Source of the DNA: an uncultured Candidatus Rokubacteria bacterium
GTDB lineage: Bacteria > Methylomirabilota > Methylomirabilia > Rokubacteriales > DASRDR01
DNA: 64,000 nt
NCBI GenBank assembly: GCA_963805625.1
Contig: CAWDVE010000012.1
Location: 96,001 to 160,000 of the forward strand
Direction of reading: 5' to 3'
This document shows positions 31,354 through 63,611 of the stretch, in pieces. The position numbers and the translations under genes are program-made. Under the pieces are notes generated by a model. The model saw only the letters and a list, made by a program, of their open reading frames with translations, had not been told where the DNA came from and did no database searches. Position 1 is the stretch's first letter, and each line of letters opens with the position of its first letter.

Positions 31354-31415
31354 AGAGACAAAGAGGTCGCCTACTGCACGCTTCACAGATCAACTTCATC
31401 AGAGGCAGGGCCTCC

Positions 31416-31874
31416 ATGCCTGAGATCAAGACCGAGTTTCTGTTCACGATCGCCTTTGAAGTTCAAGTCTTCAACCTCGGCGACACGCCCCATGGCGGCC
31501 GGCGCATCGTCCGGCTCGGTACCGGCAGCTTCGAAGGACCGAAGCTCAAGGGCACGGTGTTACCGGGCGGTGGCGGCTGGTCGCTCATGCGCCGCGATGA
31601 TGTGCTGGAGATCGGCGGCCACGGCCTGGCCCTCGAGACGGACGACAAGCAGCACATCTACATGACCTGGAAGGGATTTCGCCACGGCCCGAAGGAGGTT
31701 ATTGATCGTCTCAATCGCGGTGAGACGGTCGACCCGGAGACGTACTATTTCCGCACCACGCCATACTTCGAGACGAGCTCGGAAAAGTACGGCTGGATGA
31801 ACCGCATCTGCTCGATCGCCTCCGGCTCGCGCACGGCGAGCGGGCGGACCTTCCAGGTGTTTCAGGTGTTGTAA
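31416..31874 (+). CDS. DUF3237 domain protein
   Basis: GDTPHGGRRI, GSFEGPKLKGTVLPGGG, LETDD, YYFRTTPYFET...YGWMN. Confidence 0.85.
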   Translation: MPEIKTEFLFTIAFEVQVFNLGDTPHGGRRIVRLGTGSFEGPKLKGTVLPGGGGWSLMRRDDVLEIGGHGLALETDDKQHIYMTWKGFRHGPKEVIDRLNRGETVDPETYYFRTTPYFETSSEKYGWMNRICSIASGSRTASGRTFQVFQVL

Positions 31875-31901
31875 GGGGATGCAGGTATGAGCTGCGGACC
31901 C

Positions 31902-31976
31902 CTCAAGACCTCGAAGGCCCTCGGCCTGACGATCCCCCCGGCGGTCCTCGCGCGGGCGGATGAGGTCATCGAGTGA
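31902..31976 (+). pseudogene. Orphan SBP C-terminal segment (3' end of the emptied slot)
   Basis: Translates [24 protein letters not shown] and overlaps the next start exactly as intact copies do. Confidence 0.85.
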
Positions 31977-33918: not shown

Positions 33919-34893
33919 GTGGACCGGCGCGCGTTCGTCGCTGGTACCCTGGGCCTCCTCGCCTCGCCGCTCGCCGCCGACGCACAGCAGGCGGCGGGGA
34001 GGATCTACCGCATCGGCTTCCTCTCGACCTCGGGTAGCGGGGGAGCCAACCTGCGGAGGACCTTGCTCGATGGCTTACGGGAGTGGGGCTACGTCGAGGG
34101 CCGGAATCTCGAGGTCCTGCTTCGCCATGGGGATGGCAAGATCGACCGGCTGCCCGAGGCGGCGACCGAGCTCGTGCGCGCCAGGCCCGACGTCATCATC
34201 ACATCCATCAACGCCACGACGCACGCGGCCCGGAAGGCGACGCAGACCGTTCCGATCGTGATGGTCATCGGGAGTGACGTCGTCCGGCAGGGGTTCGTCG
34301 CGAGTCTGGCGAAGCCGGGCGGTAACGTCACCGGGCTGACATTCGAGGCCGACACCGGACTGATGGCGAAGCGCTTCGAATTCGTGAAGGAAACGATCCC
34401 TGGGGTCTCGCGCATCACGGCCCTGTGGGACCCCGGGCAGGATGCCGCGTCCGGCAGGTCCCGGTTGGAAGAGGCTGCGGCGGCCGTGAGTGCGCGCCTC
34501 ATCCTCCTCGAGTTCCAAGATGATCTGGACGCGCTGTTCGCCACGGCGGTGCGGGAGGGCGCCCAGGCCCTCGTCACCGGCGGTGGTGCGCGCATGTTCC
34601 GTCGCCGCCAGGAACTCGTCGACTTGGCGGCGAAGAATAGGCTGGCTGACTTCCATTACACGCGCGAATTCGTCGAAGCGGGCGGCTTGATGTCCTATGC
34701 GCCAAGCCTACCCGGGAACTACAAGCGCGCCGCCACCTATGTCGACAAGATCCTCAAGGGCACCACCCCCGCGGATCTGCCCGTGGAGCAGCCCACGCAG
34801 TTCGAGCTCGTGATCAACCTGCGGACCGCGAAGGCGCTCAGTGTCACGATCCCACCGGCGGTGCTCGCGCGAGCGGACGAAGTGATCAACTGA
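33919..34893 (+). CDS. ABC transporter substrate-binding protein, array copy 7
   Basis: Family motifs; GTG start directly after TAA. Confidence 0.92.
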   Translation: MDRRAFVAGTLGLLASPLAADAQQAAGRIYRIGFLSTSGSGGANLRRTLLDGLREWGYVEGRNLEVLLRHGDGKIDRLPEAATELVRARPDVIITSINATTHAARKATQTVPIVMVIGSDVVRQGFVASLAKPGGNVTGLTFEADTGLMAKRFEFVKETIPGVSRITALWDPGQDAASGRSRLEEAAAAVSARLILLEFQDDLDALFATAVREGAQALVTGGGARMFRRRQELVDLAAKNRLADFHYTREFVEAGGLMSYAPSLPGNYKRAATYVDKILKGTTPADLPVEQPTQFELVINLRTAKALSVTIPPAVLARADEVIN

Positions 34894-35039
34894 CCGCCCT
34901 CGCCCTCGGCCCCGCGTATCGCAACCCGGCGCTTGCATGGCGTCGAATCCGCGCGGTTAGGGGACCGCCTCGCCCCGCAGATTCACATGTGGACCTACGG
35001 GAGGATCGAACCCTCGCACGGTGACTCCTCATCCCGGCT

Positions 35040-35640: not shown

Positions 35641-35865
35641 TCTCAGATATCGCCTCCCACAACCGGGCGATGCCGCGCTCAGCGGTCCGTATCCCGATAG
35701 GTTCCCCGGCAGGCCACCACGAAGCTCGCCGAGTTCGTAGCGGCCCAGCCCACCGAGGCGAAGGTGGTGCCCCTCGCCCGGGTGGCTCAGGCTGGGGGCC
35801 GACGAGAACCCGGACAATTCTGGTGCGGGGTCGGGGAAGAGCCCTACGGAAGTACGCGGAAAGGC

Positions 35866-35909
35866 TGGCGCGCCTGGAGGGAATCGAATCCCCGACTCAC
35901 GGCTTAGAA
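35866..35909 (-). repeat. att copy of the tRNA-Arg 3' half (middle)
   Basis: 44 bp with 2 mismatches to 63535-63578. Upstream AAGTACGCGGAAAG is also shared with the tRNA flank at ~63518. Confidence 0.9.
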
Positions 35910-36099
35910 AGCATGCGGGTTGTCGAAGAATAGCGCCCCGCAATCGCAACTTACGCCGCGCCATTGTTGGCGTATCGTCGCCTCATGCGGCGGCCGAGTG
36001 GTGGCCGAGTAGGGGCCGAAATATGGCCGTCTGGCGACGGCGTAAGCGACAGCTCGGGGCCAGGCGTCGGCGCTAAGAAGGACCGACTGCGCGACCCGC

Positions 36100-36340
36100 G
36101 CGCGCCGTGATAGATGACCAAGTTGACCGCGGGCCGAGGCGTGATCGCCGCGAGCTTTTCCATGAACTCAATCGGGTCGAAGACCAGATGGGACGGCCCG
36201 GAGCCGCACGCGGTCTCGGGCCAGCGGGGGACGGAGAAGATAGCGGCCGAGCTGTTCCAAGCATCCTGCCGTAAGCGCCTGCGTGTGATTGCCACGGTGG
36301 CGGACCCCATCGCCGTGCGTCAGATTCTCGCCGCCCCGGC
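36100..36340. pseudogene. IS91-like (Y2) transposase remnants on opposite strands
   Basis: Minus strand: LVFDPIEFMEKLAAITPRPAVNLVIYHG. Plus strand: CRKRLRVIATVADPIAVRQIL. Confidence 0.6.
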
Positions 36341-39359: not shown

Positions 39360-42300
39360 TCATGTCGCCGCCCGCATCTCCGCCTCGGCCTGCTCCAGCC
39401 AGAAGGTCATGCCCATCTCGCGGTACATCGTCGTCGCGGCGGCGAGGTGCTCGCGGGCCTCCTCCCGCTTGCCGGCGCGCTGGTAGAGCTTGCCGATGCC
39501 GAGGTGGCAGTGGGCGACGAGGGGGCGCATGCCGAGCTCGCCGGCGAGGGCCAGCGCCCCGCGGTAGTGACCTTCAGCCTCGGCAGCGTCCTCGGCGCCG
39601 CCGGCGGACGCGACGTCACCGGCGAGGCAGAGGGCGTGGGCCTCGCTGCCCCGCGCCCCTAGCCGGCGGCTGAGCGTCAGCGCCTCTCGAGCGTGGCGGG
39701 CGGCCTCGGCGATCCGCCCGGCTGAGAGGCAGGTCATCCCCGCGCACAGCAGAATGAGCGTCGGCCAGCTGTGAGTCTGGCGTCTGCGGAACTCCTCGAC
39801 AGCGCCCGCGACCAGCGGGAGCGCCTCGTCAGCCCGGCCGGCGAGGGCGTAGGCGGCGCCGAGGGCCGCGGCGACGACCGGTATCCCGATGACGATCTGC
39901 CACGATCGGCAGAGGTCGAGGCTGCGCTCGAGGACCCGGATCGCGCGCGGGAGATCCCCGCGACGGAGGTGGACGCGCCCGAGACTGGACAACCCGAAGT
40001 GCAGCGTGTAGGGATGATCGGCCGCTTCCGCGATCTGCACGGCACCCTCGGCGTGCCCGATGGCCTCGTCGAACCGGCCGAGCTGGGAGAGCGCGTCGGC
40101 GAGCCAGGCGCCTGACGCCGCCGACTGAATGGCGGGCCCGCCAAAGCGCTCGGCGCGCAGGTCGCCCTCGAGCGCCACGTTTCGCTCGAGCAAGGTGGCC
40201 GCGGCGCTGAACTCGCCCCGGGTGAGGTGCGTCAAGCCCAGCAAGGTCGTCGCGACCACCTCGATCGAGCGATCGCCGAGGGTGCGCGCGAGGCTCAGGG
40301 CCTCCCGCCCGAATCTGAGGGACTCGTCGTACTCGCCCGTGATCCGGCACTGGGTCACCATGAAGGTGGCGATCCACGCGAGCCGGCGCGGGTCGCCCAG
40401 CGTCCGGGCGAGCCCCTCTGCCTCGTGGAGGTACTCCCCGATGCGCGCATACTCGCCGAGCGGGAGGAGCGCGTTTCGGAGGTCGAGCCGGAAGTCGATG
40501 GCCAGCTCGGTCGTCTCTCGGGTCTCGGGGAGATGGCGGAGGGCCCCGAGGGCCTGCTCCAGGTGGGCCACGGCCTCGCGGTTGGCGCCCCGCGCCATGG
40601 CTCGGAGCCCCGCCTGGCGGAGATACGCGACCGCCTTCTCCCACAACTCCCCGCGCAGGGCGTGATGGGCCAGCTGTTCCGCCTGCTCGGCGAGGCGCTC
40701 GGGCGAGAGCCGCTCGAGGGCCTCGGTGATCCGAGCGTGCAGGGCGCGCTGCCGGTCGTGGAGCAGTCCCTGGTACGCCACCTCGTGCGTGAGTGCGTGC
40801 TTGAACGTGTACTCAAGGTCCGGAAAGAGCCGGGTCTCGTAGAGGAACTCCGCGGCCTGGAGGTGCGCGAGCCCGCGTCGAAGGCCCTCCTCCGGAAGAT
40901 CGGCCACCGCCTGGAGCAGGGGGAACGCCACCTCTGTCCCGATGACGGACGCGGTTTGGAGCAGCAGTTTCTCGTCGGCGGGCAGGCGGTCGATGCGGGC
41001 GGCCAGAATCGCCTGCACCGTCGTGGGCACCTGGATGCTGGGCAGGGCCGTTCCCAGGCGGTAGGCCCCGCGCTCGCCGATCAACGCGTGGGTCTCGACC
41101 AGCGTGCGGACGCTCTCCTCCAGGAAGAACGGGTTCCCTTCCGTCCGCTCGATCAGGAGCGGAGGGAGCGGACGCAGGCTGGGGTCGTCCCCCAGGAGGA
41201 CGTGCAGGAGGGCCTCCGCGCCCTCGGGCGGCAACGGGTCGAGCCGGAGCTGGGTGTAGAACATCCGGCTCCCCCAGCCGTGCTGGTATTCGGGGCGGTA
41301 GTTGACGAGGAGAAGGAGCCGGGCGGTCGGGAGGCCCTCGATGAGACTGTCCAGCAGGGCCTGGGTCTCGGAATCGATCCAGTGCAGGTCCTCGAACACG
41401 AGGAGCAGGGGCTGCCCCTGCGCTTCGCGCAGCAGGAGCCGCTTGATCGCCTCGAGCGTCCGCTGGCGCCGCTGCGGGGGGTCGAGCGCCTCCCACGCAC
41501 CGTCCTCCACTGACACGTCGAGCAAGGCGAGGAAGGCGGGGAGGCTCGGCTCCAGGCTGCGGTCGAGCGCGAGGAGCTTGCCCATCACCTTCTCGCGCAT
41601 CCGTCGCGGGTCGTCACGCGCCTCGATCTGGAAGTACGCCTTGAGCAGGTCAACCACGGGCAGATACGGGGTCGCCTGCCCGTACGAGGCCGAGCTGGCG
41701 TGCAGGATGAGCCAGCCCGCGCTGCGATGGGAGTGCGTCACCTCCCAGACGAGCCGGGACTTCCCCACGCCCGGCTCCCCGACGAGGGCCACGACCTGGC
41801 CGTGCCCGGAGGCCGCGCGCCCGAGCGCCTGGCGCAGCTGCTCCACCTCGCGGTCCCGGCCGACGAACGTGGTCAGCCCCCGGGCGGCCGCCGCCTGCAG
41901 CCGCGTCCGGACCGGTCCCGCGCCGGTTACCTCGTAGACCTCGATGGGCGCGCCGAGGCCCTTGACCGACATCGGGCCGAGCGGCGTCACCCCGACGTAG
42001 CCCTCGGCCAGCCGGAGCACCTCGGCCGTCAGGAGGATCGACCCGGGTGCGGCCATCTGTTCCATCCGACCCGCCAGGTGGGTCGTCTGCCCGACGGCCG
42101 TGTACTCCATGTGGAGGTCGCTGCCGATCGAGCGGACGACGACCTCTCCCGAGTTCAGCCCCACTCGGATCTGGACCAGCACGCCCTCGGCCCGTCGCAC
42201 AGCCTCGGCGTACTGCTTGACCGAGTCCTGCATCCGGAGCGCCGCGTAGCACGCGCGCACCGCGTGATCCTCGTGGGCGGCGCCCCGAAGAGGGCCATGA

Positions 42301-42708
42301 TGCCATCGCCCATGACCTGGTTGACGGTGCCCTCGTAGCGGTGAACCGCCTCCATCATCCGCTCGAGGACCGGGTCGAGGAGCTTCCGCGCCTCCTCGGG
42401 GTCGCGGTCGGCCAGCAGCTCCATCGAGCCCTTCAGTCGGCGAACAGCACGGTGACCTGCTTGCGCTCACCTTCAAGGGCGTTCCGGGACGTGAGGATCT
42501 TCTCGGCGAGGTGCTTCGGGGTATAGACCTGGGGCGCCAGAGATGGACCGGGTGAAGAGTCTAGCGGCTTGCCGCACTCCAGACAGAACTTCGCGCCGGC
42601 CGGCAGCGCGGTGCCGCACTGGGCGCACGTGGGCGCAAGCCGGCTCCCGCATTCCAGGCAGAGCTTCGCCGGCGGCGGGTTCTCGTGCTGGCACCGGGGG
42701 CAGTGCAT
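39360..42708 (-). pseudogene. Double zinc ribbon + class III adenylate/guanylate cyclase + AAA ATPase + TPR protein, frameshifted near 42435 and 42275
   Basis: CPRCQHEN..CLECG; EGERKQVTVLFAD / GDGIMALFGAP / HEDHAVRAC / RVGLNSGEV split over three frames; GEPGVGKSRL Walker A; FEDLHW. Confidence 0.88.
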
Positions 42709-42962
42709 GCCCAACATTTCCCCGCGCAGAGTGCCGCCAGCCTAGCCCACCGGACCTCGGGGAGCAACCAGGACCTGCCCTGTCCGAGTGTATGCCTTCG
42801 CATGCGCCAACAGTCTCCTGTTAGGCGCCGAGCACCCCTCCTCTGCCATCACCGGCCGCCATCCCATCCCGGGAACTGGTCCCGAGTCCGCCCGGCCAGG
42901 ATCCGGCAGCCTGCATCCGGACCGTCCCTTCCGCCAATTGCCGCCCCGCACCAGGAGCCGCT

Positions 42963-43007
42963 GCCGCCAGACCCTGTCGCCGCCAGACCCTGTCGCCGCC
43001 AGACCCT
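42963..43007 (+). repeat. 16-bp tandem repeat (GCCGCCAGACCCTGTC) x2.8
   Basis: Read directly from the sequence. Confidence 0.8.
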
Positions 43008-43069
43008 TGACAGGGCGCGCGCCAGCCGCGCACCCTCGGGGCCAAGGGGGGATGTCTGCCAGCCCCCCT

Positions 43070-43095
43070 GGGGAAACAGCTGAGAACGAGCTTTA
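43070..43095 (+). repeat. dif/Xer-like repeat copy 1, left part (continues at 44204-44211 and 45785-45788)
   Basis: After removing the ISs: GGGGAA ACAGCTGAGAA CGAGCT TTATGTCGACT ACCC (11-6-11 core). The Xer assignment is inferred. Confidence 0.65.
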
Positions 43096-44201
43096 TTGAT
43101 CTTTGACTATGTAATGGATACACGACTCACGTCCACGGCAGGTCCGATGCGAGGATGCAGGACCACAGGAGGTGCTGGGACCCATGGACCCGACGGAACG
43201 ACCGCCGTAGGTGGGCATCCAATTGACGAAGGTGTTCCGGTGCGCCATTGGCCAAGTCATGCTTGAACTTGGTCCAGACGAACTCGTCGGGATTCAGCTC
43301 GGGGGCATAGGCCGGGAACCGATGCACGTGCAGCCGCGTGTGTCGGGTCAAGAACGCCGTGACGTCGGCGCGCCGGTGAATCATGCCACCATCCCAGAGC
43401 AGCTCGACCGGTCCGCGGAGGTGCCGCAGGAGGTGGCGCAGAAACACCACGACCTCCGCCCCGGTGATGTTCACGGGGTGGACGTGCATGTACAAGCCCA
43501 GGCGGGCGCGCTGGGGGGACACCGACAGGGCAGAAATCGCCGACAGCTTGTCGCGCGTGTAGCTGTGGCGTACCCGCGGCGTACACCCCACCGGCGCCCA
43601 GGTCTTCCGCATGTTCGGGATCAACAGGAAGCCGCTTTCATCGAGAAACACGAGGTGGGCCCCACGTCGGGCGGCGTTTTTTTATATCCGGCCACGTGTG
43701 CGTCTTCCAGTGTTCGATGGCCGCCTCGTCCCGCTGGCGCGCGCGCCGTTCGGGTTTCTGCCAACTCCAATGCAGGCCGTGCCGCAAGAGCTTCCACACG
43801 CCGACCGGACTGTAGCGTACGTCGAACTCCGCCTCGATCAGCGTGCCGATGCGCTTGAGCGTCCACAACTCGGTCGTGTGTCCGGCGGCCCGCGCGCCTT
43901 GGAGCAGCAACCGCCGGAGGCGCGCCTTCTGGGTCTCCGTCAACCGGGGCGGGCGGCCCGGCGTGGGCCGGGCGCGTAATCCGTTCCGCCGGTCGCGCCG
44001 ATACGCTTGCTTCCAGCGCACGACGGAGCTCACGGCCGCCCGGACCAAGCGGGCGACTTCGCGATATGGCGTGCCCACCCGCAGGAGCGCGATAGCCCGG
44101 CGTCGACGCTTTTCCAGTTGCTCGGCCGTGCCAGAAGGTCTCATGCCGATCAGCATAGTGAACCACAGGCTAACCGTATGCATTCTTTAGTAAATGGTCA
44201 A
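43096..44201 (-). mobile_element. IS630 family element 1
   Basis: TA duplication at 43094-95 and 44202-03; imperfect terminal IRs TTGATCTTTGACTA / TTGACCATTTACTA. Confidence 0.9.
43127..44144 (-). CDS. IS630 transposase (orfA/orfB joined by a -1 frameshift at A7, 43677-43683)
   Basis: HTH orfA ending DIKK; orfB with FLDESG, WDG and YAPELNPDE. Confidence 0.85.
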
Positions 44202-44224
44202 TATGTCGACTTCTATGAAGCGGC

Positions 44225-44645
44225 CCCCCGTGTCAAGCGATAGCGGCGTGTGTGGTGTCCCTCTCGTCCTCCCGTCCTAGGTCAGCGGTCCACGGCGATG
44301 GGACCTACGGTTCCCGCGAGGTTCAGTCATCCTTCTATTCGCGCTCGTCAGGGGCGAGCGGGGCTCGCCGGCGCATGAGGGGAGTCGAAGGGTGGGGACG
44401 CCATCTATGCAACGGCGCTCGAACAGCGGCCAAGTCGACATACGCGCTCACCCACCCGTCGAACCTGCGCGAGACCGAGGTGCCGCTCATCTCACCGACG
44501 CGGACTATGCCTGACTTCTCAGGGCTCGGAGCCTGACTCGGGTGAATCGCGATCGCCCAGTGGGCCCAGGACGCGTCCGTTGACCTGGACCGCTATCTGG
44601 GTATTCCCGAAATCGGCTATTTTCGCGTTCGCCATGCGCCGCCCG
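44225..44645 (-). ncRNA. Candidate bridge/seek RNA in the IS1111 3' non-coding region (limits approximate)
   Basis: Contains ATAGAAG (44332-44338) and TCCCATC (44297-44303) matching the predicted circle junction, and TATGTCGACT (44433-44442) and GTGGGT (44450-44455) matching the target flanks. Confidence 0.55.
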
Positions 44646-45689
44646 TCAGACGGGAGCAGCCGCCTCGGCCACGTGGCGCGGCACGACCCGTGGAGTATAC
44701 GTCGTCCCGTCGCGCAGCATCGCGTAAAGGATGCCGGCCAGGCGACGGGCCAGCGCGACGACGGCGATCTTCTTGCCACGGCGCGTGGCGATGCCCATGG
44801 CCCACCGCCGCAAGGCGACCGTCCGGGGATCACGCAGGCGCAGGATCGACACGGCCGCCTGGACGAGCAACCAGCGCATCCGGGTATTGCCAGCCTTGGT
44901 GATCCGCCCGCGTCGTTGACTCTCCCCCGAGCTCAGCTCCCTCGGGACGAGGCCGAGATACGCTTCCACGTCATGCGCCCGGTGGAAACGCCCGGCGTCG
45001 TCGATCGTGGCCACGAAGGCCGCCGCGGTCACCGGTCCCACACTGGGGACTGTCCGCAGGCGCTGGACTCGCACATCTGGGCGCGTGACGGCCTCGATCA
45101 CCTCGTCCGAGTAGGCGAGCTGCTGATTGACGGGCCGCATCACCGCCAGCAGGGGCGCCACCTCCGAGAGCAGGCGGCCCGGCAGCGGCAGCGCCACGAC
45201 GCGCCGGATGAACGTGTCCGCGCTCCCCGTGGGCACGCGCCACCCGTGGCGGCGCAGAAGAGCCCGGATCAGGGCGATGTAGCCGGTGCGCGTCCGAACC
45301 AAGGCATCGCGCACCGCCAGGCGCCCCCGCACATGCCGCTGCGCGTCCGAGAGCCGATGCGCCGGGCGGTACGCCCCCAGCAGGCAGGCCTCCGCCAGCG
45401 CCCGGGCATCCCGCCGATCGGTCTTGACCTTCCGGGTCCGCGTGGCAGACATCGGCGCGAAGTTCGGGTCCGCCACCACGACCTCGTGGCCCAAGGCCTC
45501 AAGGCAGCGCGCCACCCACTCGCTCTCCGTTGAGGCCTCGACGAGGATCCGGGCTCGCGGCCGGCCGCCCAGCACCTCCGCGAACCGCTCGGGCTCGGTG
45601 CGGATCCGGCATTCGCTCAATTGGCCCCCCTCGCGGAGGGTGCAGATCTGGCTTTCCTTCTTGTGCAGGTCGATGCCAACATAGTCCAT
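44646..45689 (-). CDS. IS110 family recombinase/transposase
   Basis: YVGIDLHK, VEAST, KTDRRDA (DEDD RuvC domain); VPSVGP, YLGLVP..SSG, ITKAGN. Confidence 0.93.
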   Translation of the reverse strand: MDYVGIDLHKKESQICTLREGGQLSECRIRTEPERFAEVLGGRPRARILVEASTESEWVARCLEALGHEVVVADPNFAPMSATRTRKVKTDRRDARALAEACLLGAYRPAHRLSDAQRHVRGRLAVRDALVRTRTGYIALIRALLRRHGWRVPTGSADTFIRRVVALPLPGRLLSEVAPLLAVMRPVNQQLAYSDEVIEAVTRPDVRVQRLRTVPSVGPVTAAAFVATIDDAGRFHRAHDVEAYLGLVPRELSSGESQRRGRITKAGNTRMRWLLVQAAVSILRLRDPRTVALRRWAMGIATRRGKKIAVVALARRLAGILYAMLRDGTTYTPRVVPRHVAEAAAPV

Positions 45690-45810
45690 GGCTGGCCCCC
45701 TCGTGCGCCCGTGAGCGCGTGTTCGCTCAGTGGGGCACTGTATGCCACCACGTCGAGCTGCGGGTCAGCCGCTTCATCCCATCTACCCACGTTCCCCGGG
45801 AGGTGTGCCC

Positions 45811-46269
45811 GTGCCAGTCGATCGCACGTATGCAACTGAGAACGATGCACAGCGGGAGCGGCTTCGCGCCCTTGTCCGGAGCCTCGGCGACCAGGACCTC
45901 GCGCGCCCCATGGAGGCCGGCTGGACGGTGGCGGCAGTCCTCGCGCACGCCGCCTTCTGGGATCAGCGGATTGTCGTCCTGCTCGACCAGTGGGAGCAAC
46001 GGGGCCCCTCGTGGACCCCGCCCCTCGAAGTGGAGCGCGATGGCGACTGGATCAACGATGCCGCGAAGGCGCTCTGCCTGGCCCTCCCGCCTCGCGTGGC
46101 GGCCGACCTCGCCGTCTCGGTCGCCGAGGCGGTGGATCGGCGGGTGGCCGCGGTGAGCGACGCCATCATCGAGGCGAATGCGCGGGCCGGCTCTCCGCTC
46201 AACTGGCACCGCGCGGAACACCGGCGCGAGCACCTGGACGAGATCGAGCGAGCGCTCCGCGGCGCCTGA
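45811..46269 (+). CDS. DinB/MDMPI superfamily protein
   Basis: GWTVAAVLAHAAFWD and HRREHLDEI motifs; GGAGG RBS. Confidence 0.8.
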   Translation: MPVDRTYATENDAQRERLRALVRSLGDQDLARPMEAGWTVAAVLAHAAFWDQRIVVLLDQWEQRGPSWTPPLEVERDGDWINDAAKALCLALPPRVAADLAVSVAEAVDRRVAAVSDAIIEANARAGSPLNWHRAEHRREHLDEIERALRGA

Positions 46270-46297
46270 TCCCCCGATGCGCTTCTCCGGGCCCCCG

Positions 46298-46323
46298 GGG
46301 GAAACAGCTGAGAACGAGCTCTA
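46298..46323 (+). repeat. dif/Xer-like repeat copy 2, left part (continues at 47398-47409)
   Basis: Reconstructed GGGGAA ACAGCTGAGAA CGAGCT CTATGTCGACT ACCC; 37 of 38 bp identical to copy 1. Confidence 0.65.
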
Positions 46324-47395
46324 CTAGTCAGTCCGACACTTGGCGCATGAAAGAAGGAGCGAACCAGGCCGGTCGCGCTTGAATACCCGCCAGATCCACC
46401 TGGACGCGGCTTCGAAGCGATTCGTCTTTCCGCAACGGGGTCTTGCTGACGCCTTGGCGCTTGAGGTGGTTCCAGACGAACTCGTCGGGGTTCAACTCCG
46501 GCGCATAGCCGGGCAGGAAATGCAGCTCGAGGCGACCGGCAAGCTGCTGGACGTACTGCGCGGCTACGTTGGCGATGTGCGCGGGGTGGCCGTCGAGGAC
46601 GAGGAACACGGCGCGCTTGCGCCCGCGCATGAAGTGCGTCAGCAACTCGACGAACCGTGGGGCGTTGAGCCGTTCGGTGTAGATCTCGTACCAGAAGGCG
46701 CCGCGGGCGTTGACGGCGGAGATGGCGCTCACGCTCTGGCGCCGGCCGCTCGTGGGGACCTCGGGCGTCTGCCCCCGCAGACCCCACGTCCGCCCGAGGA
46801 CTTGGTCGGAACGGACCCCGGCCTCATCGAGGAAGAAGATCTTCGCGCCGACGCGCTTGGCCCGCGCGCGCAGGCGGGGGAACACCGCCGTTTTCCAGTG
46901 CTCGATCGCCACGGGATCGCGCTCGTAGGCGCGGCGCAACGGTTTCTGGGGCGTGATGTCCAACTCGGTGAGGAGGCGACCGACGGCGGTCACGCCCAGC
47001 CGCACGCCGAACTTCTGTGCGATCAGCGCCGCTACAATCTGCCGAGTCCAGAGGCCAAAGTCGAAGCCGTACTGGCGCGGGTCCTTGCCATTGATCCATC
47101 GCCGGACCTGGAGCTTCTGGCGCGGCGTCAGGGCCGGCTGCCGCCCCGGATGTGTTCGCGCGGTGAGCGCCGCTGGGCCGCGTCGCCGCACCGCGGTCAG
47201 CCATTTGTAGATCGTGGTGCGACACAACCCATAGCCTTTGATGACGTCGCTCGGCGCTTCGCCTTCCTGCACGCGCCGCACGGCCATGCGCCGGATTGTC
47301 TCGGAGGTCTCGTGCGACAGGGTCCGCCCGTCGATCCGCATAACCCTTCATATCACAATCCGAGCGCAGTGTAGCCTAAAGACAGGACTGGTTAG
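46324..47395 (-). mobile_element. IS630 family element 2
   Basis: TA duplication at 46322-23 and 47396-97; terminal IRs CTAGTCAGTCC / CTAACCAGTCC. Confidence 0.9.
46328..47341 (-). CDS. IS630 transposase (single ORF; possible frameshift in the last ~15 codons)
   Basis: FLDEAG, VLDGHPAH, YAPELNPDE. Confidence 0.9.
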   Translation of the reverse strand: MRIDGRTLSHETSETIRRMAVRRVQEGEAPSDVIKGYGLCRTTIYKWLTAVRRRGPAALTARTHPGRQPALTPRQKLQVRRWINGKDPRQYGFDFGLWTRQIVAALIAQKFGVRLGVTAVGRLLTELDITPQKPLRRAYERDPVAIEHWKTAVFPRLRARAKRVGAKIFFLDEAGVRSDQVLGRTWGLRGQTPEVPTSGRRQSVSAISAVNARGAFWYEIYTERLNAPRFVELLTHFMRGRKRAVFLVLDGHPAHIANVAAQYVQQLAGRLELHFLPGYAPELNPDEFVWNHLKRQGVSKTPLRKDESLRSRVQVDLAGIQARPAWFAPSFMRQVSD

Positions 47396-47415
47396 TATGT
47401 CGACTACCCCCAAGC

Positions 47416-47530
47416 TCAGGGTGCTTCGTTGAATGCCGCGGCGTGGTTGGTCGGCGCGACGTGCCCTCCTCCAGGAATAACAATGAGTCGCGACCCCGGA
47501 AATGCAGCGATGGGCCGTCTCCGCCGCAAG
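47416..47530 (-). pseudogene. Alpha/beta hydrolase 3' remnant
   Basis: FPGSRLIVIPGGGHVAPTNHAAAFN (catalytic His region). Confidence 0.5.
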
Positions 47531-47620
47531 CGCCGAGATGCACAGGAACCGCTAGCTACGGTTTCAGCCACGGTGAGCCCGTCGTGACCAAAATGGTGTT
47601 CGCTAACTATCGAAAAAGGC

Positions 47621-47665
47621 TGGCGCGCCTGGAGGGAATCGAACCCCCGACCCACGGCTTAGAAG
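47621..47665 (-). repeat. att core: perfect 45-bp copy of the tRNA-Arg 3' half
   Basis: Identical to 63535-63579. Confidence 0.95.
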
Positions 47666-50104: not shown

Positions 50105-51410
50105 GGGATTGTCACGAAATAAATGTACCAGATAATGGGATCGTGGCTGCTAGGGTATCCCATGGATGGTGGCCGAGCAGGCCATTCGACGACGGTTCCG
50201 GCTGATCGAGCCGCACCTGGACGAGCGGCTGCGCCGGCTGGTGGCCGCGGCGGAAGTCGCGGCCGCGGACAGCGTGTCGGCGGTGGCCCGGGCCACCGGA
50301 GTGTCCCGGCGCGCCATTCGCGCTGGGGTCACGGAGCTGAAGGCCCGTGGCGCAGCGGCCCTGGCCCCGGGGCGGATCCGGCGTCCCGGAGGCGGGCGCA
50401 AGCGCACGGTCGACCAGGATCCGACGTTGGTGACGGACTTGGAAACGCTGATCGAACCCACGACGCGCGGGGATCCGCAGTCCCCGCTGCGGTGGACCTG
50501 CAAGAGCGTCCGGCGCCTGGCCGCCGAGCTGACCCGCCAAGGGCCTCGCACGAGCCATCGGATGGTCGCCGCGTTGCTCCAGCAGTTGGGGTACAGCCTG
50601 CAGGCCAATCGGAAGACGATCGAGGGCACCCGGCACCCCGATCGCAATGCCCAGTTCGAGCACATCGCCGCCCGCGTCCAGGCCACGCTGCGCCAGGGCC
50701 AGCCGGCGATCTCTGTCGATACCAAGAAGAAGGAGCTCGTGGGGCCGTTCAAGAATGCCGGTCGCGAATGGCGGGCCCACGGGCAGCCTCGGCCGGTGCG
50801 GGTCCACGACTTCGTGCAGCCGGAGCTGGGGCGCGCCATTCCCTACGGGGTCTACGATCTGGGCGCCAACACCGGCTGGGTCAGTGTCGGCATCGACCAC
50901 GACACGGCGGCGTTTGCCGTCGCGAGCATTCGCCACTGGTGGCAGGCCATGGGGCGCCGGGCCTATCCTCACGCCCGGCGGCTGCTGATCACGGCCGACG
51001 CCGGCGGGAGCAACGGCGCCCGCCGGCGGTTGTGGAAGGTCGAGCTGCAGAAACTGGCGGACCGCCTCCACCTGCCCATCACGGTGTGTCATTTCCCGCC
51101 CGGCACGAGCAAGTGGAACAAGATCGAACACCGCCTGTTCTCCTTCATCACTCAGAACTGGCGCGGCCAGCCCCTGCTCAGTCACGCGGTCATTGTGAAT
51201 CTGATCGCGGCCACCACGACCACCACGGGCCTCCGCGTGCGGGCGCGGCTGGACACGACCCGGTATCCCTCGGGCCTCAAGGTCAGTCGCGCCACCCTGG
51301 AGGCCGTCCGCCTGCGGCCCGATCCGTTTCACGGGGACTGGAACTACACGATCCTTCCCACCCAGTCGGCAAAGCGATAGCATCTGGTCCATTTATTTCG
51401 CACCGGGTCC
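50105..51410 (+). mobile_element. ISAzo13 family element
   Basis: IR core CGAAATAAATG(T/G)ACCAGAT at both ends; flanked by TTA(G). Confidence 0.85.
50166..51380 (+). CDS. ISAzo13 family transposase
   Basis: RGDPQSPLRWTCKS, ISVDTKKKE, TADAGGSNG, PPGTSKWNKIEHRLFS. Confidence 0.92.
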   Translation: MVAEQAIRRRFRLIEPHLDERLRRLVAAAEVAAADSVSAVARATGVSRRAIRAGVTELKARGAAALAPGRIRRPGGGRKRTVDQDPTLVTDLETLIEPTTRGDPQSPLRWTCKSVRRLAAELTRQGPRTSHRMVAALLQQLGYSLQANRKTIEGTRHPDRNAQFEHIAARVQATLRQGQPAISVDTKKKELVGPFKNAGREWRAHGQPRPVRVHDFVQPELGRAIPYGVYDLGANTGWVSVGIDHDTAAFAVASIRHWWQAMGRRAYPHARRLLITADAGGSNGARRRLWKVELQKLADRLHLPITVCHFPPGTSKWNKIEHRLFSFITQNWRGQPLLSHAVIVNLIAATTTTTGLRVRARLDTTRYPSGLKVSRATLEAVRLRPDPFHGDWNYTILPTQSAKR

Positions 51411-51562
51411 TTAGCGGATGGGCCCCGTGGACGAAACCATGGGGCTCGGTCCTTGCATAGTCTCGCTCTTCGTGGATAGCGCGCGTTCCTCATAGCCTGC
51501 TGCGGCCATAGTGCATTCACATCAACGGGATGATGTGCCCGCACCGGCCGCTTGGGGGGAGC

Positions 51563-52114
51563 ATGAAACTGATAGCGACAATCGGACTCCTAGTCGTGAT
51601 CCTCGTCCCCGGCGTAGCGCACGCGACTCCGCTCGTCGCCACGTGGGGATGGATCGGACTCTATGGGGTCGACACATGGGCCGACTTCGGCGGAGAAGAA
51701 TTCTCCGTGTTCGTCTCCCAACCAAGTTCGTTTATAAGCAACCCTTTCACGATCGCGATAGGCATGAACGGGATGGATGGAGATGGCGGACTCATTCATT
51801 TGTATTTCGGGTGGGGTGAGGTATACGGGGCGATCTGCTCCTCGTACGCGTTGGGGATCGGCGAGACATGCGGTTCGATGACGCTCGCGTATGATCCTCT
51901 CGCGACCCTGCCGGCGCCGTTCACCCTGACGGGGCATTTGAACGTCGGCGATGGGTTTGACTTTGTGGGACAGGGCACGGTCCGTGCCGGAACGCCAAAC
52001 CCATACCCATGGTTGCGGTACACAGTACCCGAGCCCTCGACGCTGCTCTTGGTCATCGCGTCGCTCGGCGCGCTCGGCGCGCTTCACGGCACTCGACGAG
52101 GTGCATCGCGGTGA
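51563..52114 (+). CDS. PEP-CTERM surface protein 1
   Basis: Signal peptide, then C-terminal VPEPSTLLL + TM + basic tail. Confidence 0.85.
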   Translation: MKLIATIGLLVVILVPGVAHATPLVATWGWIGLYGVDTWADFGGEEFSVFVSQPSSFISNPFTIAIGMNGMDGDGGLIHLYFGWGEVYGAICSSYALGIGETCGSMTLAYDPLATLPAPFTLTGHLNVGDGFDFVGQGTVRAGTPNPYPWLRYTVPEPSTLLLVIASLGALGALHGTRRGASR

Positions 52115-52145
52115 CGGCAGCAGCCCACTGTGGGAGGTGTGTCCG

Positions 52146-52763
52146 ATGAAGCTCATAGCCACGATCGGGCTCCTGATTGTGATCCTCGTCCCCGGCGTAA
52201 CCCACGCGACGCTCGTTGTCACGGAAGGAAAGGTAAGCCTGGAAGTGACAGACAGCCTTGCCATCTTTGGCGACAACCTTTCGGGAGATTGGGAGGATGG
52301 GTGGTGGGGCGTGGAGCTGTCCTGGCCCTATCAGCAACCAGCGGACGACGGGACGCTGACGATGCAGATCCAGGGCAACGCCAGCGCCTGGGTCGATGGG
52401 ACCGGGTGCTCCGCCGTACGGTTCCCGGGAGGCCCCCTCCCCGAGCCCGCCCCCTCCTGCGGCGTGTTCACGCTGACGCCGGCGCCGCCACCTGTCGAGA
52501 GCTTGCCCGTGCCATTCACCGCTACTGGGCATCTGAACGTCGGCGACGGCTTCGACTTTGTCGGCCAGGGCGTGATCGAGCGTGGTTGCCTGCTACCCCT
52601 GGGATGCACCCCCGGACCAGGACGTCCACTCTGGGTATATAGGTTCACCGTGCCCGAGCCCTCGACCCTCCTGTTGCTCGGAACGTCGCTCGGAGCACTC
52701 GCGATTCTTCAGCGACGAAAGAGAGCAGCACGGTCTCATTCATCGCCTCAACCTGATCGCTGA
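52146..52763 (+). CDS. PEP-CTERM surface protein 2 (paralog)
   Basis: Same signal peptide type, TGHLNVGDGFDFVGQG, VPEPSTLLL...RRKR. Confidence 0.85.
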   Translation: MKLIATIGLLIVILVPGVTHATLVVTEGKVSLEVTDSLAIFGDNLSGDWEDGWWGVELSWPYQQPADDGTLTMQIQGNASAWVDGTGCSAVRFPGGPLPEPAPSCGVFTLTPAPPPVESLPVPFTATGHLNVGDGFDFVGQGVIERGCLLPLGCTPGPGRPLWVYRFTVPEPSTLLLLGTSLGALAILQRRKRAARSHSSPQPDR

Positions 52764-52832
52764 GCCTCTCGAAAGAGCAGGTTACCGCCGCGGCCGGGGG
52801 TGCTCCGCTGAGTCCATAGCGGCGTCGCGGTC

Positions 52833-53462
52833 GTGGACCGGCGCCGCGTGGAGGGTTGGAGACCCGGTGCCGAACCGGTGCGGACCCCTCCACGCAGCTC
52901 AAGACGCGGTGGTGAACAGGCCGCGCAGGAACCGGCCCGCCAAGGTCAGGGCCTGGTCGCCACTGGCGACGAGGGACCCATCCCCAGCGCGACCCCGCCC
53001 CGCACCGGCACCACCCACCCCCGCATAGTGCGCCTCCCGTTCCACGAGTTTGTCCGGTTGCCGAGAGCGTCGCGGACTCACTGGGGGCCCTGGGAGTTTC
53101 GTGCCGATACCAACGTGCTCATGCTGCTTAGCAACCGGGGGGGCAACGGGCGCACCCGGGACGAGTTCGAGGTCGACCTGGACGAATGCACGACACCGGA
53201 GCAAACGCTGTGGTGGATTTTCACGGTGTGCGATTCGGAGCCACACGCCGTGGGCGACCTGGTCGAGGCGTTGCGAGACCGCAGCGAGTGGTGGAAACGA
53301 GCGTGGGCACAATTCCCTCATGCGGCACCGCCGGTCCCTGGGCCCAGTGCCAGCCCCGGCACCATACGAGGCCGGGGCGCCACCAAGACCAAGGTCTCAG
53401 CGGCTGGCCCCAACCGGCGCGCCCCGTCGCGGCGGGCTCCCTCAGCGCGGAGGCCGGGATGA
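52833..53462 (+). CDS. Hypothetical protein (phage-like)
   Basis: 209-aa ORF with a plausible globular core (WGPWEF...EVDLDEC...VGDLVEAL). Start uncertain. Confidence 0.45.
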   Translation: MDRRRVEGWRPGAEPVRTPPRSSRRGGEQAAQEPARQGQGLVATGDEGPIPSATPPRTGTTHPRIVRLPFHEFVRLPRASRTHWGPWEFRADTNVLMLLSNRGGNGRTRDEFEVDLDECTTPEQTLWWIFTVCDSEPHAVGDLVEALRDRSEWWKRAWAQFPHAAPPVPGPSASPGTIRGRGATKTKVSAAGPNRRAPSRRAPSARRPG

Positions 53463-53773
53463 GCCTTAGCTTCGACGGCGTCAACGACGTCGTCACCCTG
53501 GCCAGCCAGACGCTCGGCAACGACCTCACCATGGCCATCCCGGGCATGCGCCTGTACTGGCCCATGGACCGCATCGGCGCCGCCCACGCTACCGACTACA
53601 GAGGCAACGGACGCTCGGGCCCCATTAGCGGGGCGATAGAGGGCGAGAACCCCCCGGTGCGCCCTGCGGGCGACGGGGCTAGCGATGCATTACCAAGCTG
53701 CCCGGACGTTGCGGGGGCGGCGTCACAGCGCCTTCGGCTCGGTCCGCGAGCTGCGCTCGCGACCTCGCCTTGA
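53459..53773 (+). pseudogene. Internally deleted LamG/concanavalin-like protein
   Basis: MSLSFDGVNDVV is joined almost directly to LYWPMD...ATDYRGNGRSG. Confidence 0.5.
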
Positions 53774-54140
53774 CGTATTCCCAGCGTCACGTTCAATGCC
53801 GGCTCCCATTTGACACTCGTTCCTCACTCGCCCTACCATCGCGCCACGCCCGCGACTAGTCCTTCAAGGAGGGAGAGCCCCCATGCGACCGCCGTACCTT
53901 GGACTAATCGTTCTTGGGCTGGTGGGCGCCAGCGCTGCGTCTGCCCAGAACGTCAGTTATCCCCCCTACTCGGTCACGGTCAGTGTGCAAATTGAAGCGA
54001 GCGGAGGACTCAGGGAAAGAGTCGCTAGCTATCTGACTCGGGAGTTGCGGACCCTGCCTGGCGTGAGAGTAGGTGATCAGAGCCCAACCTTCACAATTTA
54101 CGTTGTGGCGGTCGAGTCCCACAATCGGGGCGGGACACCA

Positions 54141-55637
54141 TGCTGTTGGTCCATAAGAATGTCATGGGCTAACTGTTCAGTGAGAGTGTCACCCCATGCC
54201 GACATGGGAGCCTCTCACGATGAGTCGCAAGGAAGTCCCGCGGCCCGGCCTGCTCAAGGCGGCCCTGGCCGGGAAGTTCACCAATGCCGAGGGAGCCGGG
54301 GCCTTGCACCTGAGCGTCCGGCAGTTCATCCGGGTCAAGCATCGCTTCCAGGCCGCCGGGGCGTCGGGCCTGTGCCACCGCCTGCGGGGGCGACCCTCCC
54401 CCCGCCGGCTGCCGGCCGACGTCCGGGCGCGGGTGGCGGCGCTCCTGCAGACCACCTACCTCGATGTCAATGACTGCCACGCCACGGAGAAGCTGCGCGA
54501 GGTCGAGGGCCTCCGCGTCAGCCGGGCCTCCGTGCGGCGGATCCGCCGCGCCCTGGACCTGCCGGCCAAGCATCGCCGCCGGCCCCGCCAGCACCGGGCT
54601 CGCCGGACCCCGGAAGCCCGCAGGGGCGTCCTCGTCCAGCTCGACGGCAGCCCCCACGCGTGGCTCGAAGACCGGGGCCCCGCCCTGACCCTCCACGGCG
54701 CGATCGACGACGCCACCGGCACGGTCCTGGCCCTGCACTTTCGGCCGACCGAGGACCTGCACGGCTACGCCACCGTGCTCCAGCAAATCGGTCTGGCCTA
54801 CGGCCTCCCGCTGACCCTGTACGGCGATCGTTTCGGCGTTTTCGTCCGCAACGACCCGCACTGGACGCTCGCGGAAGAACTCCAAGGCCACCAGCACCCC
54901 ACCCATTTCGGCCAGATCCTCCGAGACCTCGCCATCGGCTTCCTGGCGGCGGGCTCCCCCCAGGCCAAGGGGCGCATCGAACGGCTCTGGCGCACCCTGC
55001 AAGATCGCCTCGTCGTCGAGCTCCGCCTGCGCGGGATCGCGACCCGCGCGGCGGCCAACGCCTTCCTCCCTGAGTTCCTCGCCGATTACAATGGCCGCTT
55101 CGCTCATCCCCCCACCGACGCCCACGCCGCCTGGCGGCCGCGGCCGCGGGACTTCGCCGACCAACTCAGCTGCCGCTACACCCGCGTCGTCGCCCCCGAC
55201 AACACCGTCCGCCTGGGGACCCGCTGGGCCCAGATCCCCCCCGGTCCTTACGGCCGCTCCTCCGCGGGCCGCCGTGTCGACCTCCGCGAGTGTGTCGACG
55301 GCCGGCTCCTTGTCGTCCGCGCCGGCGGGCGACTCGTCAGTCAGCCCTCGCCGGGGCCTGATTTCGTCCTCACGCCCCGCAGCAAGCCCCACGCGGAGCG
55401 CACGCGTCGCCTACGCGCCTCCAGGACTGCGTCGGAGGAGGGGGGCCGCCATCAGAGTATTCCCCAGAAACCGCCTGCGCGCCCCTCGGCGCGCCGCCTC
55501 ACCCCGACCACCCAGACGGCTCGCCCCGCCGCCACGCATCCCTGGCGCCGCTCACTCAACCTCCGTCGCCACACCCCTCACACAGGGGTGACATTCTCAC
55601 GGAACAGTTAGGGTGACATTTTCACTGGACAGCTACA
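54141..55637 (+). mobile_element. IS1202-like (ISNCY/IS481-related) element
   Basis: TG...CA ends, ~54-bp IRs with two internal (A/G)TGTCA repeats, 16-bp TSD TCGGGGCGGGACACCA (54125-54140 and 55638-55653). Confidence 0.88.
54196..55611 (+). CDS. ISNCY/IS1202-type DDE transposase
   Basis: QLDGSPHAW, AIDDATG, LYGDR, SPQAKGRIERLWRTLQDRL, HPWR C-terminus. Confidence 0.9.
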   Translation: MPTWEPLTMSRKEVPRPGLLKAALAGKFTNAEGAGALHLSVRQFIRVKHRFQAAGASGLCHRLRGRPSPRRLPADVRARVAALLQTTYLDVNDCHATEKLREVEGLRVSRASVRRIRRALDLPAKHRRRPRQHRARRTPEARRGVLVQLDGSPHAWLEDRGPALTLHGAIDDATGTVLALHFRPTEDLHGYATVLQQIGLAYGLPLTLYGDRFGVFVRNDPHWTLAEELQGHQHPTHFGQILRDLAIGFLAAGSPQAKGRIERLWRTLQDRLVVELRLRGIATRAAANAFLPEFLADYNGRFAHPPTDAHAAWRPRPRDFADQLSCRYTRVVAPDNTVRLGTRWAQIPPGPYGRSSAGRRVDLRECVDGRLLVVRAGGRLVSQPSPGPDFVLTPRSKPHAERTRRLRASRTASEEGGRHQSIPQKPPARPSARRLTPTTQTARPAATHPWRRSLNLRRHTPHTGVTFSRNS

Positions 55638-55971
55638 TCGGGGCGGGACACCAACGGGGTTCGCCTTAAGCGTTCTCGTCAACAATGCCCGGAATTGCCA
55701 ACTGCTTGAGCAGTTGAACAGCGGGAAGAGCCCTGATCGAAAGATCACCCAGCAGTGGGTGTTTGACCTCTATAGCTCTATGTGCTCCGGTTCTTCGCGG
55801 ACGACACAGCACGCTTTGTATGTGGTTGGGGACGAGCAAGAGCTTCGAGAGACGTGCGTTCGGGTTATTGCGGAGTTTGATACCAGAGATTTGGAGCCCC
55901 AGCGAAAGGTCTGGGAGATGCTCACTAAGTAACCATGAGCACGTAGGCTACTCCGGGAAGAGAACGTCAGA

Positions 55972-56244
55972 ATGAAGCGGCCCCGAAAGGTAAAGCGCTC
56001 TCAGGCACGAAAACAGAGCGCGGCCGACCCACCACAGATTGATGGCATTCGAGCCAAAACATCTACTGAACCCGAGCGCTGGCCGGGCTGGCTACAACAC
56101 ATCGAACGCCGCCTGCAGGCACTCTCTGCGAGTGGCGAGCCGCCAACTGTAGCGCGAGTGGAGTACATGTTGAAGCACTCCGCGTGGGTGCTCGGCCATC
56201 CGCTTGTCTGGAGCGTGGTCCGGCGAGTATTGGTCGCCCTATGA
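55972..56244 (+). CDS. Hypothetical protein
   Basis: 90-aa ORF co-oriented with the element genes; no recognisable motif. Confidence 0.35.
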   Translation: MKRPRKVKRSQARKQSAADPPQIDGIRAKTSTEPERWPGWLQHIERRLQALSASGEPPTVARVEYMLKHSAWVLGHPLVWSVVRRVLVAL

Positions 56245-56908
56245 CCGTGGCGAAGAGGTGCAGGAGTTGCGCGTTCGTCTCGCCGCCGCATTAGTCGAAG
56301 GCTTGACGGAGGGTGGGTACGCAATCACACGCGCCAAGGTTCGCCGGGGTGGTGTGGGAGTCGCCCCCGCTCTATTTCCGAATCTCGGCGACACGCTCGG
56401 CTGGTGGGACACGGAGGCTGGGGAAGCGGACAGGCGGGACGCACACCAGTTCTATCGCTTGTACGAGGAGTTGATGGAACGCTTGAAAGCTGTCCCTTGG
56501 CGAACGCTTGCGCGGCGATACCGAACGCTCGTCGATCGTCGTGAGCATGGGCAGGCGACACGGATGCTGGCCCAGGAGGGTGCGCCAGTCCTGGCAAGAG
56601 TGTTCGAGGACTTCAGGGGGGATAGGCTGGTGGGTGCATCCCTCAACGCCGACGAGTTGACAGAGATCCTGCGTGGAGTGCTCGACCAGCGCAAGGGCGG
56701 CACCCCGCGTCATGCCACCGCGTGCGAGTTGATGGCTCGCTTCCGTTTTGAGACTAGAGATGGCAGGGAACAGAAACTGACCGGCTCGCTGGTCGCGAGC
56801 ACGCTGCGAACCATCCGTAAGCGCCTACCAGAGCTTGAGTTCATGCGCCAGCCAACTCGGCGACGCTCGTCCCAAAAGAGGGGCGGAGGCCGGCGCGTAG
56901 TCCCCTGA
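56204..56908 (+). CDS. Hypothetical protein
   Basis: 234-aa ORF with helical composition and a basic tail; start uncertain. Confidence 0.5.
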   Translation: MSGAWSGEYWSPYDRGEEVQELRVRLAAALVEGLTEGGYAITRAKVRRGGVGVAPALFPNLGDTLGWWDTEAGEADRRDAHQFYRLYEELMERLKAVPWRTLARRYRTLVDRREHGQATRMLAQEGAPVLARVFEDFRGDRLVGASLNADELTEILRGVLDQRKGGTPRHATACELMARFRFETRDGREQKLTGSLVASTLRTIRKRLPELEFMRQPTRRRSSQKRGGGRRVVP

Positions 56909-56985
56909 ACCCCTCGTTGCAGGCCGGCGGTCCGGCTCCCTCTCCCGTTCTTACCTCTCTCCGTTCGTACACTGAGGCGAATTAG

Positions 56986-62185: not shown

Positions 62186-62186
62186 T

Positions 62187-63534: not shown

Positions 63535-63611
<77 letters not shown>

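Follow-up and report, generated by a model that had tools for sequence, protein, structure and literature searches.

The stretch of DNA analyzed here (the window) comprises 64,000 nucleotides of contig CAWDVE010000012.1 (assembly GCA_963805625.1, positions 96,001 to 160,000) from an uncultured Candidatus Rokubacteria bacterium. Its central feature is a 38-bp repeat in two copies, which frame a DinB-family gene and are hidden by insertion sequences (IS). Three IS elements span 43096-47395, two unrelated members of the IS630 family and one of the IS110 family according to Pfam and NCBIfam, and each IS630 element occupies the same TA of its own repeat copy. Removing all three by their coordinates, with one TA per IS630 duplication and one CT of the IS110 core taken out, restores two copies that agree at 37 of 38 positions; their starts then lie 547 bp apart, with 509 bp between the copies. 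A preliminary description of the window had proposed both this pair and a DinB-family gene standing alone between them, and both points were borne out: the interval holds a single called gene (45811-46269) with matches to DinB_2 and MDMPI_N. The reconstruction is no artifact. In a contig from the independent soil run X8, the five letters missing from copy 1 bridge 43096 to 45783, and IS-free copy 1 therefore exists in nature; contigs of runs X2 and X5 terminate in IS-free letters of the same copy. A contig of the DinB unit from run X4 changes to different letters, starting with TA, after the spacer of copy 2 (window 46320), possibly reflecting a third insertion at that position.

Beyond copy 2 lies a gene fragment that stops a few codons before its gene would end, at the copy itself. 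It had been described as the 3' end of a hydrolase gene. Its peptide is 79% identical over 24 amino acids to a fragment at C10:1289.6 kb and has no Pfam or NCBIfam match, and its likeness to a hydrolase-type C terminus is weak (E = 0.21). We take "hydrolase," a name suggested by motif, to be plausible.

The two copies belong to a larger family of sites. A matrix scan of the same genome found 12 further intact copies scoring above 22 bits, two of them in one duplicated segment, against 17.2 bits for the best match in the reversed genome. All 14 own-genome copies checked with a simple gene caller are intergenic, ruling out the earlier concern that the repeat is a coding remnant. A degenerate pattern matched 12 of 41 relatives, where the control gave 0, and across the phylum 67 of 251 genomes, where the control gave 3. 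Its further matches include records titled Acidobacteriota, Binatia, Nitrospira, and others, and some that arose by chance in coding DNA. The named records closest by this site are Candidatus Rokubacteria metagenome-assembled genomes. In metagenomes, a first pattern gave no match and a second gave 10 loci. An identical segment that begins near one end and carries a GH39 gene and its neighbors is found at C10:1733.5 kb and C12:179.7 kb.

Sites of this family tend to stand in direct rows. Neighboring pairs within 10 kb are direct in 61 of 68 cases and inverted in 7; these pairs are not independent, about 14 coming from one genome. Spacers are unlike in 34 of the 61 direct pairs and identical in 27, about half of the latter from one genome, and the first three spacer bases are shared in 45. 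The spacers of the window pair are identical. Several arrays (G008:C75, G009:C3) hold one whole co-oriented gene per interval; at G008:C75, four direct sites separate glyoxalase, GNAT, and cupin genes. Another row, at 653-691 kb of G041:C1 (L263, L264), consists of a full ISCR-type transposase gene followed by 11 near-identical 97-bp ends, all in one orientation, over 36 kb. Here the segments between ends are long and random-looking, and the left arm of the end equals the predicted dif arm of that genome at 10 of 11 bases. Further clusters of ends lie at 618-641 kb and 1219-1281 kb in G041. On metagenome contig L317, two ends of the window lineage stand 847 bp apart around one gene, which by eye looks like a peroxiredoxin gene; the interval opens with the 3' end of a gene similar to the enclosed one.

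The repeat is almost certainly the right end (oriIS) of an ISCR-type rolling-circle IS. Among 200 sites other than dif with at least 380 nt upstream (13 loci judged to be chance matches were excluded beforehand), 19 have a rolling-circle transposase profile match within 400 nt upstream, 18 of these being the C terminus at a distance of 184-295 nt, compared with 0 of 191 controls and 0 of 28 host dif sites. Window positions 42994-43093 are identical at 92 of 101 positions to the DNA that follows an ISCR-type transposase remnant in G001:C2 (L182), where the matching stretch sits about 105-205 bp past the stop of the remnant, and the window end region aligns with the post-transposase regions of other elements as well. 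An intact transposase of the family is 44% identical to ISVsa3/ISCR2-type proteins (E = 9e-106); its best NCBIfam match is ISCR clade Ia (NF052416), at 384 and 315 bits, below the cut-off of 925. What we take to be the HUH motif and the single RYLLRPP tyrosine are visible in the L186 transposase. Further, of four ISCR loci on plasmids, three retain an intact end, which lies 210-222 nt past the stop codon and shares the 11-6-11 register. A blastn search of plasmids with one end region returned no match.

Among 56 same-lineage pairs, shared identity extends past the right arm as far as +34, beyond which it falls to 0.29. Positions +32 to +34 are mostly C-N-C, with CTC at 81 of 164 sites and C at +34 in 155 of 164. 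Conservation reaches 6 bases beyond the right arm and 15-100 bases before the left arm, and left ends begin at CTGTG or a C-run; no empty target was seen. An alignment of 10 end regions contains a conserved TTGACA-18-CACC(A/C)T, the predicted counterpart of the outward promoters of ISCR1. At copy 1 a remnant of about 120 bp survives, this promoter-like sequence included; copy 2 is a piece of about 50 bp. In a tree of 17 transposases, built without IS91-proper rows (hence with no outgroup) and with long branches that meet, the dif-ended elements are not resolved as one clade and interleave with elements lacking a scored site.

The preliminary description had likened the repeat to dif, the chromosomal XerC/XerD site. 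The polarity of GGGNAGGG (FtsK-orienting polar sequence, KOPS) on contig C10 flips at 375-380 kb, and an 11-6-11 site between convergent genes at this switch (C10:379400-379427) is the predicted host dif. A pattern built from it matches 30 of 41 relatives, with exactly one match in 26 of the 41, as expected of dif. The same region of C10 carries a xerD-like gene at 422 kb and xerC at 551 kb; host XerC is above the NCBIfam cut-off, and the second protein has XerD as its best match (303 bits, cut-off 330). The GC-skew terminus, where a comparison had been proposed, proved a poor guide: nothing convincing lies at the cumulative maximum (C10:521 kb), where the best palindrome resembled part of tRNA-Leu by eye. 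Because this maximum is about 140 kb from the KOPS switch, the dif assignment remains a prediction. The window copies are not at the KOPS convergence, a place held by the C10 site.

The copies do resemble the predicted dif, matching its arms at 6+9 and 6+8 of 11+11 bases (15/22 and 14/22). The inner ATAA-N6-TTAT motif is absent, both copies having AGAA; ATAA is likewise lacking in all 14 own-genome copies above 22 bits, though the matrix gives the ATAA dif 33 bits. ATAA occurs in 9 of 206 end sites, and position 9 is G in 195 of 206, a count inflated by search patterns most of which required G. Element-type ends with ATAA are among the matches in G033, G039, and G218, and in the sole G010 match (L099) both spacer and tail are of the element type; such sites may be hybrids with dif or mimics closer to it. 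Canonical ISCR ends match the host dif at 6-8 of 11 left-arm bases and 4 of 11 right-arm bases, compared with 8-9 of 11 for the right arm here. Since the left arms of canonical ends are already dif-like and their right arms are not, the apparent mark of the dif-ended elements is the XerD-like right arm. The XerC-side arm, noted earlier as a weak match, is largely ordinary ISCR oriIS sequence.

The 11-6-11 likeness invites the explanation first proposed, a pure Xer cassette bounded by chromosomal pdif-like sites unrelated to any transposon, and the available text of PMC12907356 reports chromosomal dif-module islands in Acinetobacter. We consider such an origin very improbable and already contradicted, judging from the transposase link and the 91% end-region match. 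The site has a constant place downstream of ISCR transposases, whose end region runs on into it; it is conserved outside the 28 bp on both sides, and copy 2 interrupts a gene. AGAA in place of ATAA and the unlike spacers of 34 of the 61 direct neighbors also weigh against a plain Xer cassette.

Least probable of all is that the repeat is a locally duplicated promoter, operator, or RNA element, or a coding remnant. Most own-genome copies do have a co-oriented gene downstream, an arrangement accounted for by the predicted outward promoter of the end region. Against this reading, copy 2 faces a convergent gene fragment. The absence of any Rfam family at the sites in six loci, together with the transposase link, rules out an extracytoplasmic function (ECF)-type promoter and an RNA; this group of explanations is contradicted too by the cyclic contig described below and the end-region match.

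Its contexts in other genomes and runs make the DinB-family gene a probable small mobile cassette, part of a gene-collecting system of which few descriptions exist. In G009:C3, the window DinB unit recurs at 98% over 400 nt between two of four direct sites; both of its neighbors are different ones, and identity ends at the sites. An arrangement with a site and no DinB gene, of the kind the preliminary description suggested looking for, is found in G003:C10 (L146), where the right flank of the window repeat pair follows a site. No site is found within 1.5 kb of the DinB orthologues of G004 and G005 (79-80% identical), and the G008 orthologue (82%) stands behind a site whose 5' flank is a different one. 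Run X12 contains one 564-nt contig that reads 45835-46271, then 45 letters, then 45783-45864, and closes on itself by a 30-nt overlap to give a 534-bp cycle with the DinB unit. The cycle falls 13 bp short of the unit in the window, so that its site region differs. It fits an excised circle and could also be a tandem repeat or an assembly effect. Thus, of the proposed Xer-type single-gene cassette, the cassette behavior stands on the G009 unit and the cyclic contig, and the origin does not, the site being an ISCR-type oriIS end.

Which enzyme moves the cassette is less clear. We give about even chances to an account in which the repeats are ISCR-type right ends whose last 28 bases are dif-like, and the DinB cassette is cut out as a circle by the transposase and inserted beside another end. 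Following IS91 and IS801 biology, one-ended transposition would scatter right-end pieces of 50-200 bp, also into genes. Replication from the downstream end (copy 2) may then run through the neighboring gene and halt at the next end or end-like motif, releasing the gene plus one end as a circle; joining of this circle at the 3' edge of an existing end would lengthen a direct array lying behind the outward promoter. Two IS630 insertions and one of IS110 came later at these AT-richer sites, and the locus would thereby be frozen. The XerD-like arm may have a side role, resolving circle multimers or allowing occasional Xer swaps. Copy 2 cuts a coding sequence where no earlier site is apparent, which we count for the transposase; a site abutting a truncated gene fragment is not explicable by Xer alone. 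The DinB unit of G009 is flanked by unlike spacers, and its identity with the window begins at arm position 24. We count on the same side the direct orientation of 61 of 68 pairs, the unlike spacers of 34 of those 61, the G041 row headed by a full transposase gene, and the cyclic DinB contig. The C-N-C at +32 to +34 is like the tetranucleotides that the available part of PMC13181058 places at the target and terIS, next to the oriIS ends of IS91.

Several observations count against transposase-driven capture. An intact transposase was not found in the own 28-contig assembly, where 24 fragment matches include none of full length. The crossover pairs are mixed: the right arm of copy 2 differs from that of G009 at 3 of 11 bases, with the upstream 400 bp 97.8% identical, and is closer to the arm of L146, which shares its downstream flank; in the L076/L330 pair, a rare right-arm variant likewise goes with the downstream flank. 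Sites differ between orthologous loci too, and single crossover pairs are therefore weak evidence. The alternative origins of the X12 contig named above apply here as well. As described in the accessible text of two sources, ISCR transposition was without experimental demonstration as of 2018 (PMC6218425), and IS801 fragments in P. syringae are mostly ascribed to rearrangement rather than one-ended transposition (PMC3189936).

The crossover cases bear on a division of labor that we regard as possible but doubtful, in which the transposase scatters ends and host XerC and XerD then build the arrays, excising and integrating the intervening DNA by exchange within or next to the spacer. In both cases (copy 2 and L076/L330) the switch is on the spacer side. 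In favor of this account, the right arm is now XerD-like, the two window copies agree in their spacers, the first three spacer bases are shared by 45 of the 61 direct pairs, ATAA does occur in some ends, and XerC passes its NCBIfam cut-off. Some left arms also fit the local dif type better: that of G041 (Acidobacteriota) fits an acidobacterial dif at 9.0 of 11, against 7.2-7.6 for Rokubacteria-type dif sites, and that of G019 fits the family dif better (8.2 versus 7.0). The left arm of G044 (Acidobacteriota) matches the G041 dif at 10 of 11 bases and its own dif at only 8. However, left arms in the genus of the window fit their own dif no better than foreign ones (6.7 versus 6.8), and none of the 14 own-genome copies above 22 bits has ATAA. 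In Acinetobacter, an Xer recombination site (xrs) that had diverged in ATAA-CR-TTAT was not catalyzed and unlike central regions did not recombine, according to the available text of PMC11705084; 34 of the 61 direct pairs have unlike spacers.

Finally, the ends may be passive relics that pile up in islands, with the gene moving only in larger blocks or by RecA exchange and the dif likeness incidental. This would suit an own genome with transposase fragments only, the left-arm likeness of 6-8/11 already present in canonical ISCR ends, and the long, random-looking inter-end segments of G041; IS801 fragments, too, are largely attributed to reorganization in the part of PMC3189936 available. Independent scattering, however, predicts both orientations, and 61 of 68 pairs are direct. 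The DinB unit swaps both neighbors exactly at sites, whole co-oriented single genes fill the intervals of G008:C75 and G009:C3, and the DinB unit is found as a cyclic contig. We therefore consider passive accumulation unlikely.

The ends appear to be targets in their own right for one of the secondary elements. Relatives of the window IS110 element, 86-87% identical to it, occupy the corresponding CT at sites of L146 and L169, and L337 has the same IS start there (L146:6238, L169:2711, and L337:3249; L195:4813 is suggested by first letters only). These look like independent insertions into a preferred target, which would block the end, and a bridge-RNA target within the end site is a testable idea. 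Common ancestry of the window and G003 insertions is ruled out, the IS being 87% identical and the flank 95%. IS110 is not exclusive to the end site, a relative lying inside the transposase gene in L182. Targeting of the site by IS630 is ruled out by second copies of both elements outside such sites (C12:166444, C10:1949183).

The locus lies in a tRNA island, as first described. The window contains three tandem tRNA-Arg islands, marked by tRNA 3' pieces at 26800-26841, 35865-35909, and 47620-47664 and an intact tRNA-Arg(TCT) at 63535-63611; the repeat pair and DinB gene occupy the second. An integrase gene (62114-63499) is present only in the island adjoining the intact tRNA-Arg. Positions 27300-34900 hold seven or eight diverged tandem paralogous genes of about 1 kb each (repeat families D1-D10), which by eye look like ABC substrate-binding proteins. 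An adenylate/guanylate cyclase-AAA-TPR gene on the minus strand (39360-42717) is split over two frames, with a zinc-ribbon start at 42433-42717 and the main body at 39360-42476. The next island (50166-58452) encodes ISAzo13-family, HTH/rve, and DDE_Tnp_1_4 transposases and two PEP-CTERM proteins. Elsewhere in the genome, three adjoining tyrosine recombinase genes, some frameshifted, lie at C10:694.7-697.4 kb and presumably form a recombinase-in-trio (RIT)-like set.

Features of the repeat and DinB locus (window positions)
Feature	Positions	Strand	Remarks
Putative ISCR-type transposase remnant, same island	36041-36275	-	Profile E 5e-14 and 2e-5; C12:132041-132275
Right-end (oriIS) region of ISCR-type IS, ~100 bp, running into copy 1	42994-43095	+	Ends in left arm, spacer, and first right-arm bases
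Promoter-like TTGACA-18-CACCCT facing DinB gene	43007-43036	+	Conserved in 10 aligned end regions
Copy 1, first piece	43070-43095	+	Left arm 43076-43086, spacer 43087-43092
IS630-family element in TA of copy 1, with TA duplication	43096-44201	-	Transposase in two frames; second copy C12:166444
Copy 1, remainder of XerD-like right arm	44204-44211	+	IS-free joint in run X8
IS110-family element at CT closing right arm of copy 1 (CT core)	44212-45784	-	Transposase 44646-45689
Copy 1, last letters	45785-45788		
Cassette unit: copy 1 tail, ribosome-binding site, DinB-family gene, short linker, left part of copy 2	45785-46323	+	
DinB_2/MDMPI_N family gene, 152 aa	45811-46269	+	PF12867, PF11716
Copy 2 as short right-end derivative from C-run start, left boundary approximate	46291-46323	+	~50 bp in all
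Copy 2, first piece proper	46298-46323		
Second, different IS630-family element in TA of copy 2, with TA duplication	46324-47395	-	Second copy C10:1949183
Copy 2, remainder of right arm and tail	47398-47409	+	
3' fragment, likely of an alpha/beta-hydrolase gene, truncated by copy 2	47412-47529	-	83% nucleotide identity to C10:1289597-1289714
tRNA-Arg 3' piece, border between tandem islands	47620-47664	-	

ISCR elements are thought to mobilize neighboring genes, by a capture route that is poorly shown. The environmental clade described here leaves a clear record: ends stand in direct rows and enclose single whole genes, one cassette recurs in separate arrays, and there is a candidate circle. 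Tentatively, and with somewhat less than even confidence, we propose that in one clade of rolling-circle IS the replication origin has become a working dif mimic, giving an integron-like system without an integron integrase. The transposase would plant 50-bp ends behind genes, circles of gene plus end, the 534-bp DinB circle among them, would be released, and transposase and host XerCD would build arrays from them downstream of an outward promoter, in soil Rokubacteria, in Acidobacteriota, and in further uncultured lineages. The locus is a small, defined substrate for testing ori-to-ori excision, and it suggests a possible connection of rolling-circle transposition with the Xer machinery that can be put to the test. 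In practice, any "extra dif sites" of such genomes should be examined as possible IS ends.

Parts of this system are already known, namely ISCR ends with outward promoters, miniature IS801 pieces, capture between two oriIS, and dif-module islands. The available text of PMC12772301 mentions capture between two sequential oriIS for ISCR28, citing another paper. We did not find dif-like oriIS or direct arrays of such ends in a literature search that reached few subscription papers, and an earlier description is possible. New here are the IS-free allele, the cassette seen in two arrays, and the candidate circle.

Compared with ISCR elements (ISCR1, ISVsa3/ISCR2-type; IS91 family), the elements described here share an HUH transposase at 44% identity, the same terminal register, and an end region of about 200-250 bp in which a promoter-like sequence points outward; for ISCR1, the accessible text of PMC6218425 gives an end region of 232 bp with the outward promoter POUT. 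They differ in the right arm, which is XerD-like (TTATG/TCATG) where the three canonical ends examined have TTGAAC, in the transposase score relative to ISCR clade Ia (384 bits against the 925-bit cut-off), and in occurring mostly as solo 50- to 200-bp pieces in direct rows between single genes. Miniature right-end derivatives of IS801, of 229, 360, and 679 nt, keep the right end intact, begin on the left at a target-like motif, and are mobile in trans, according to the part of PMC3189936 available, in whose main text the word dif is absent. The present pieces are likewise short and carry the right end, but they are shorter still, have a dif-like core, and form direct arrays. With the pdif/dif modules of Acinetobacter, as the accessible text of PMC12907356 and PMC11705084 describes them, they share 28-bp, 11-6-11, host-dif-like sites around one or a few accessory genes in multimodule islands; unlike those, the sites here are transposon ends, are mostly direct rather than inverted, have AGAA for ATAA, and are conserved outside the 28 bp. 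Beside the window array an integron integrase is absent, and the sole PF00589 match in the window is the tRNA-island integrase. As in integron arrays, a recombinase-like gene and a promoter stand at the head, followed by direct repeats that each close a gene (G041, G008, G009), but the head enzyme is an HUH transposase.

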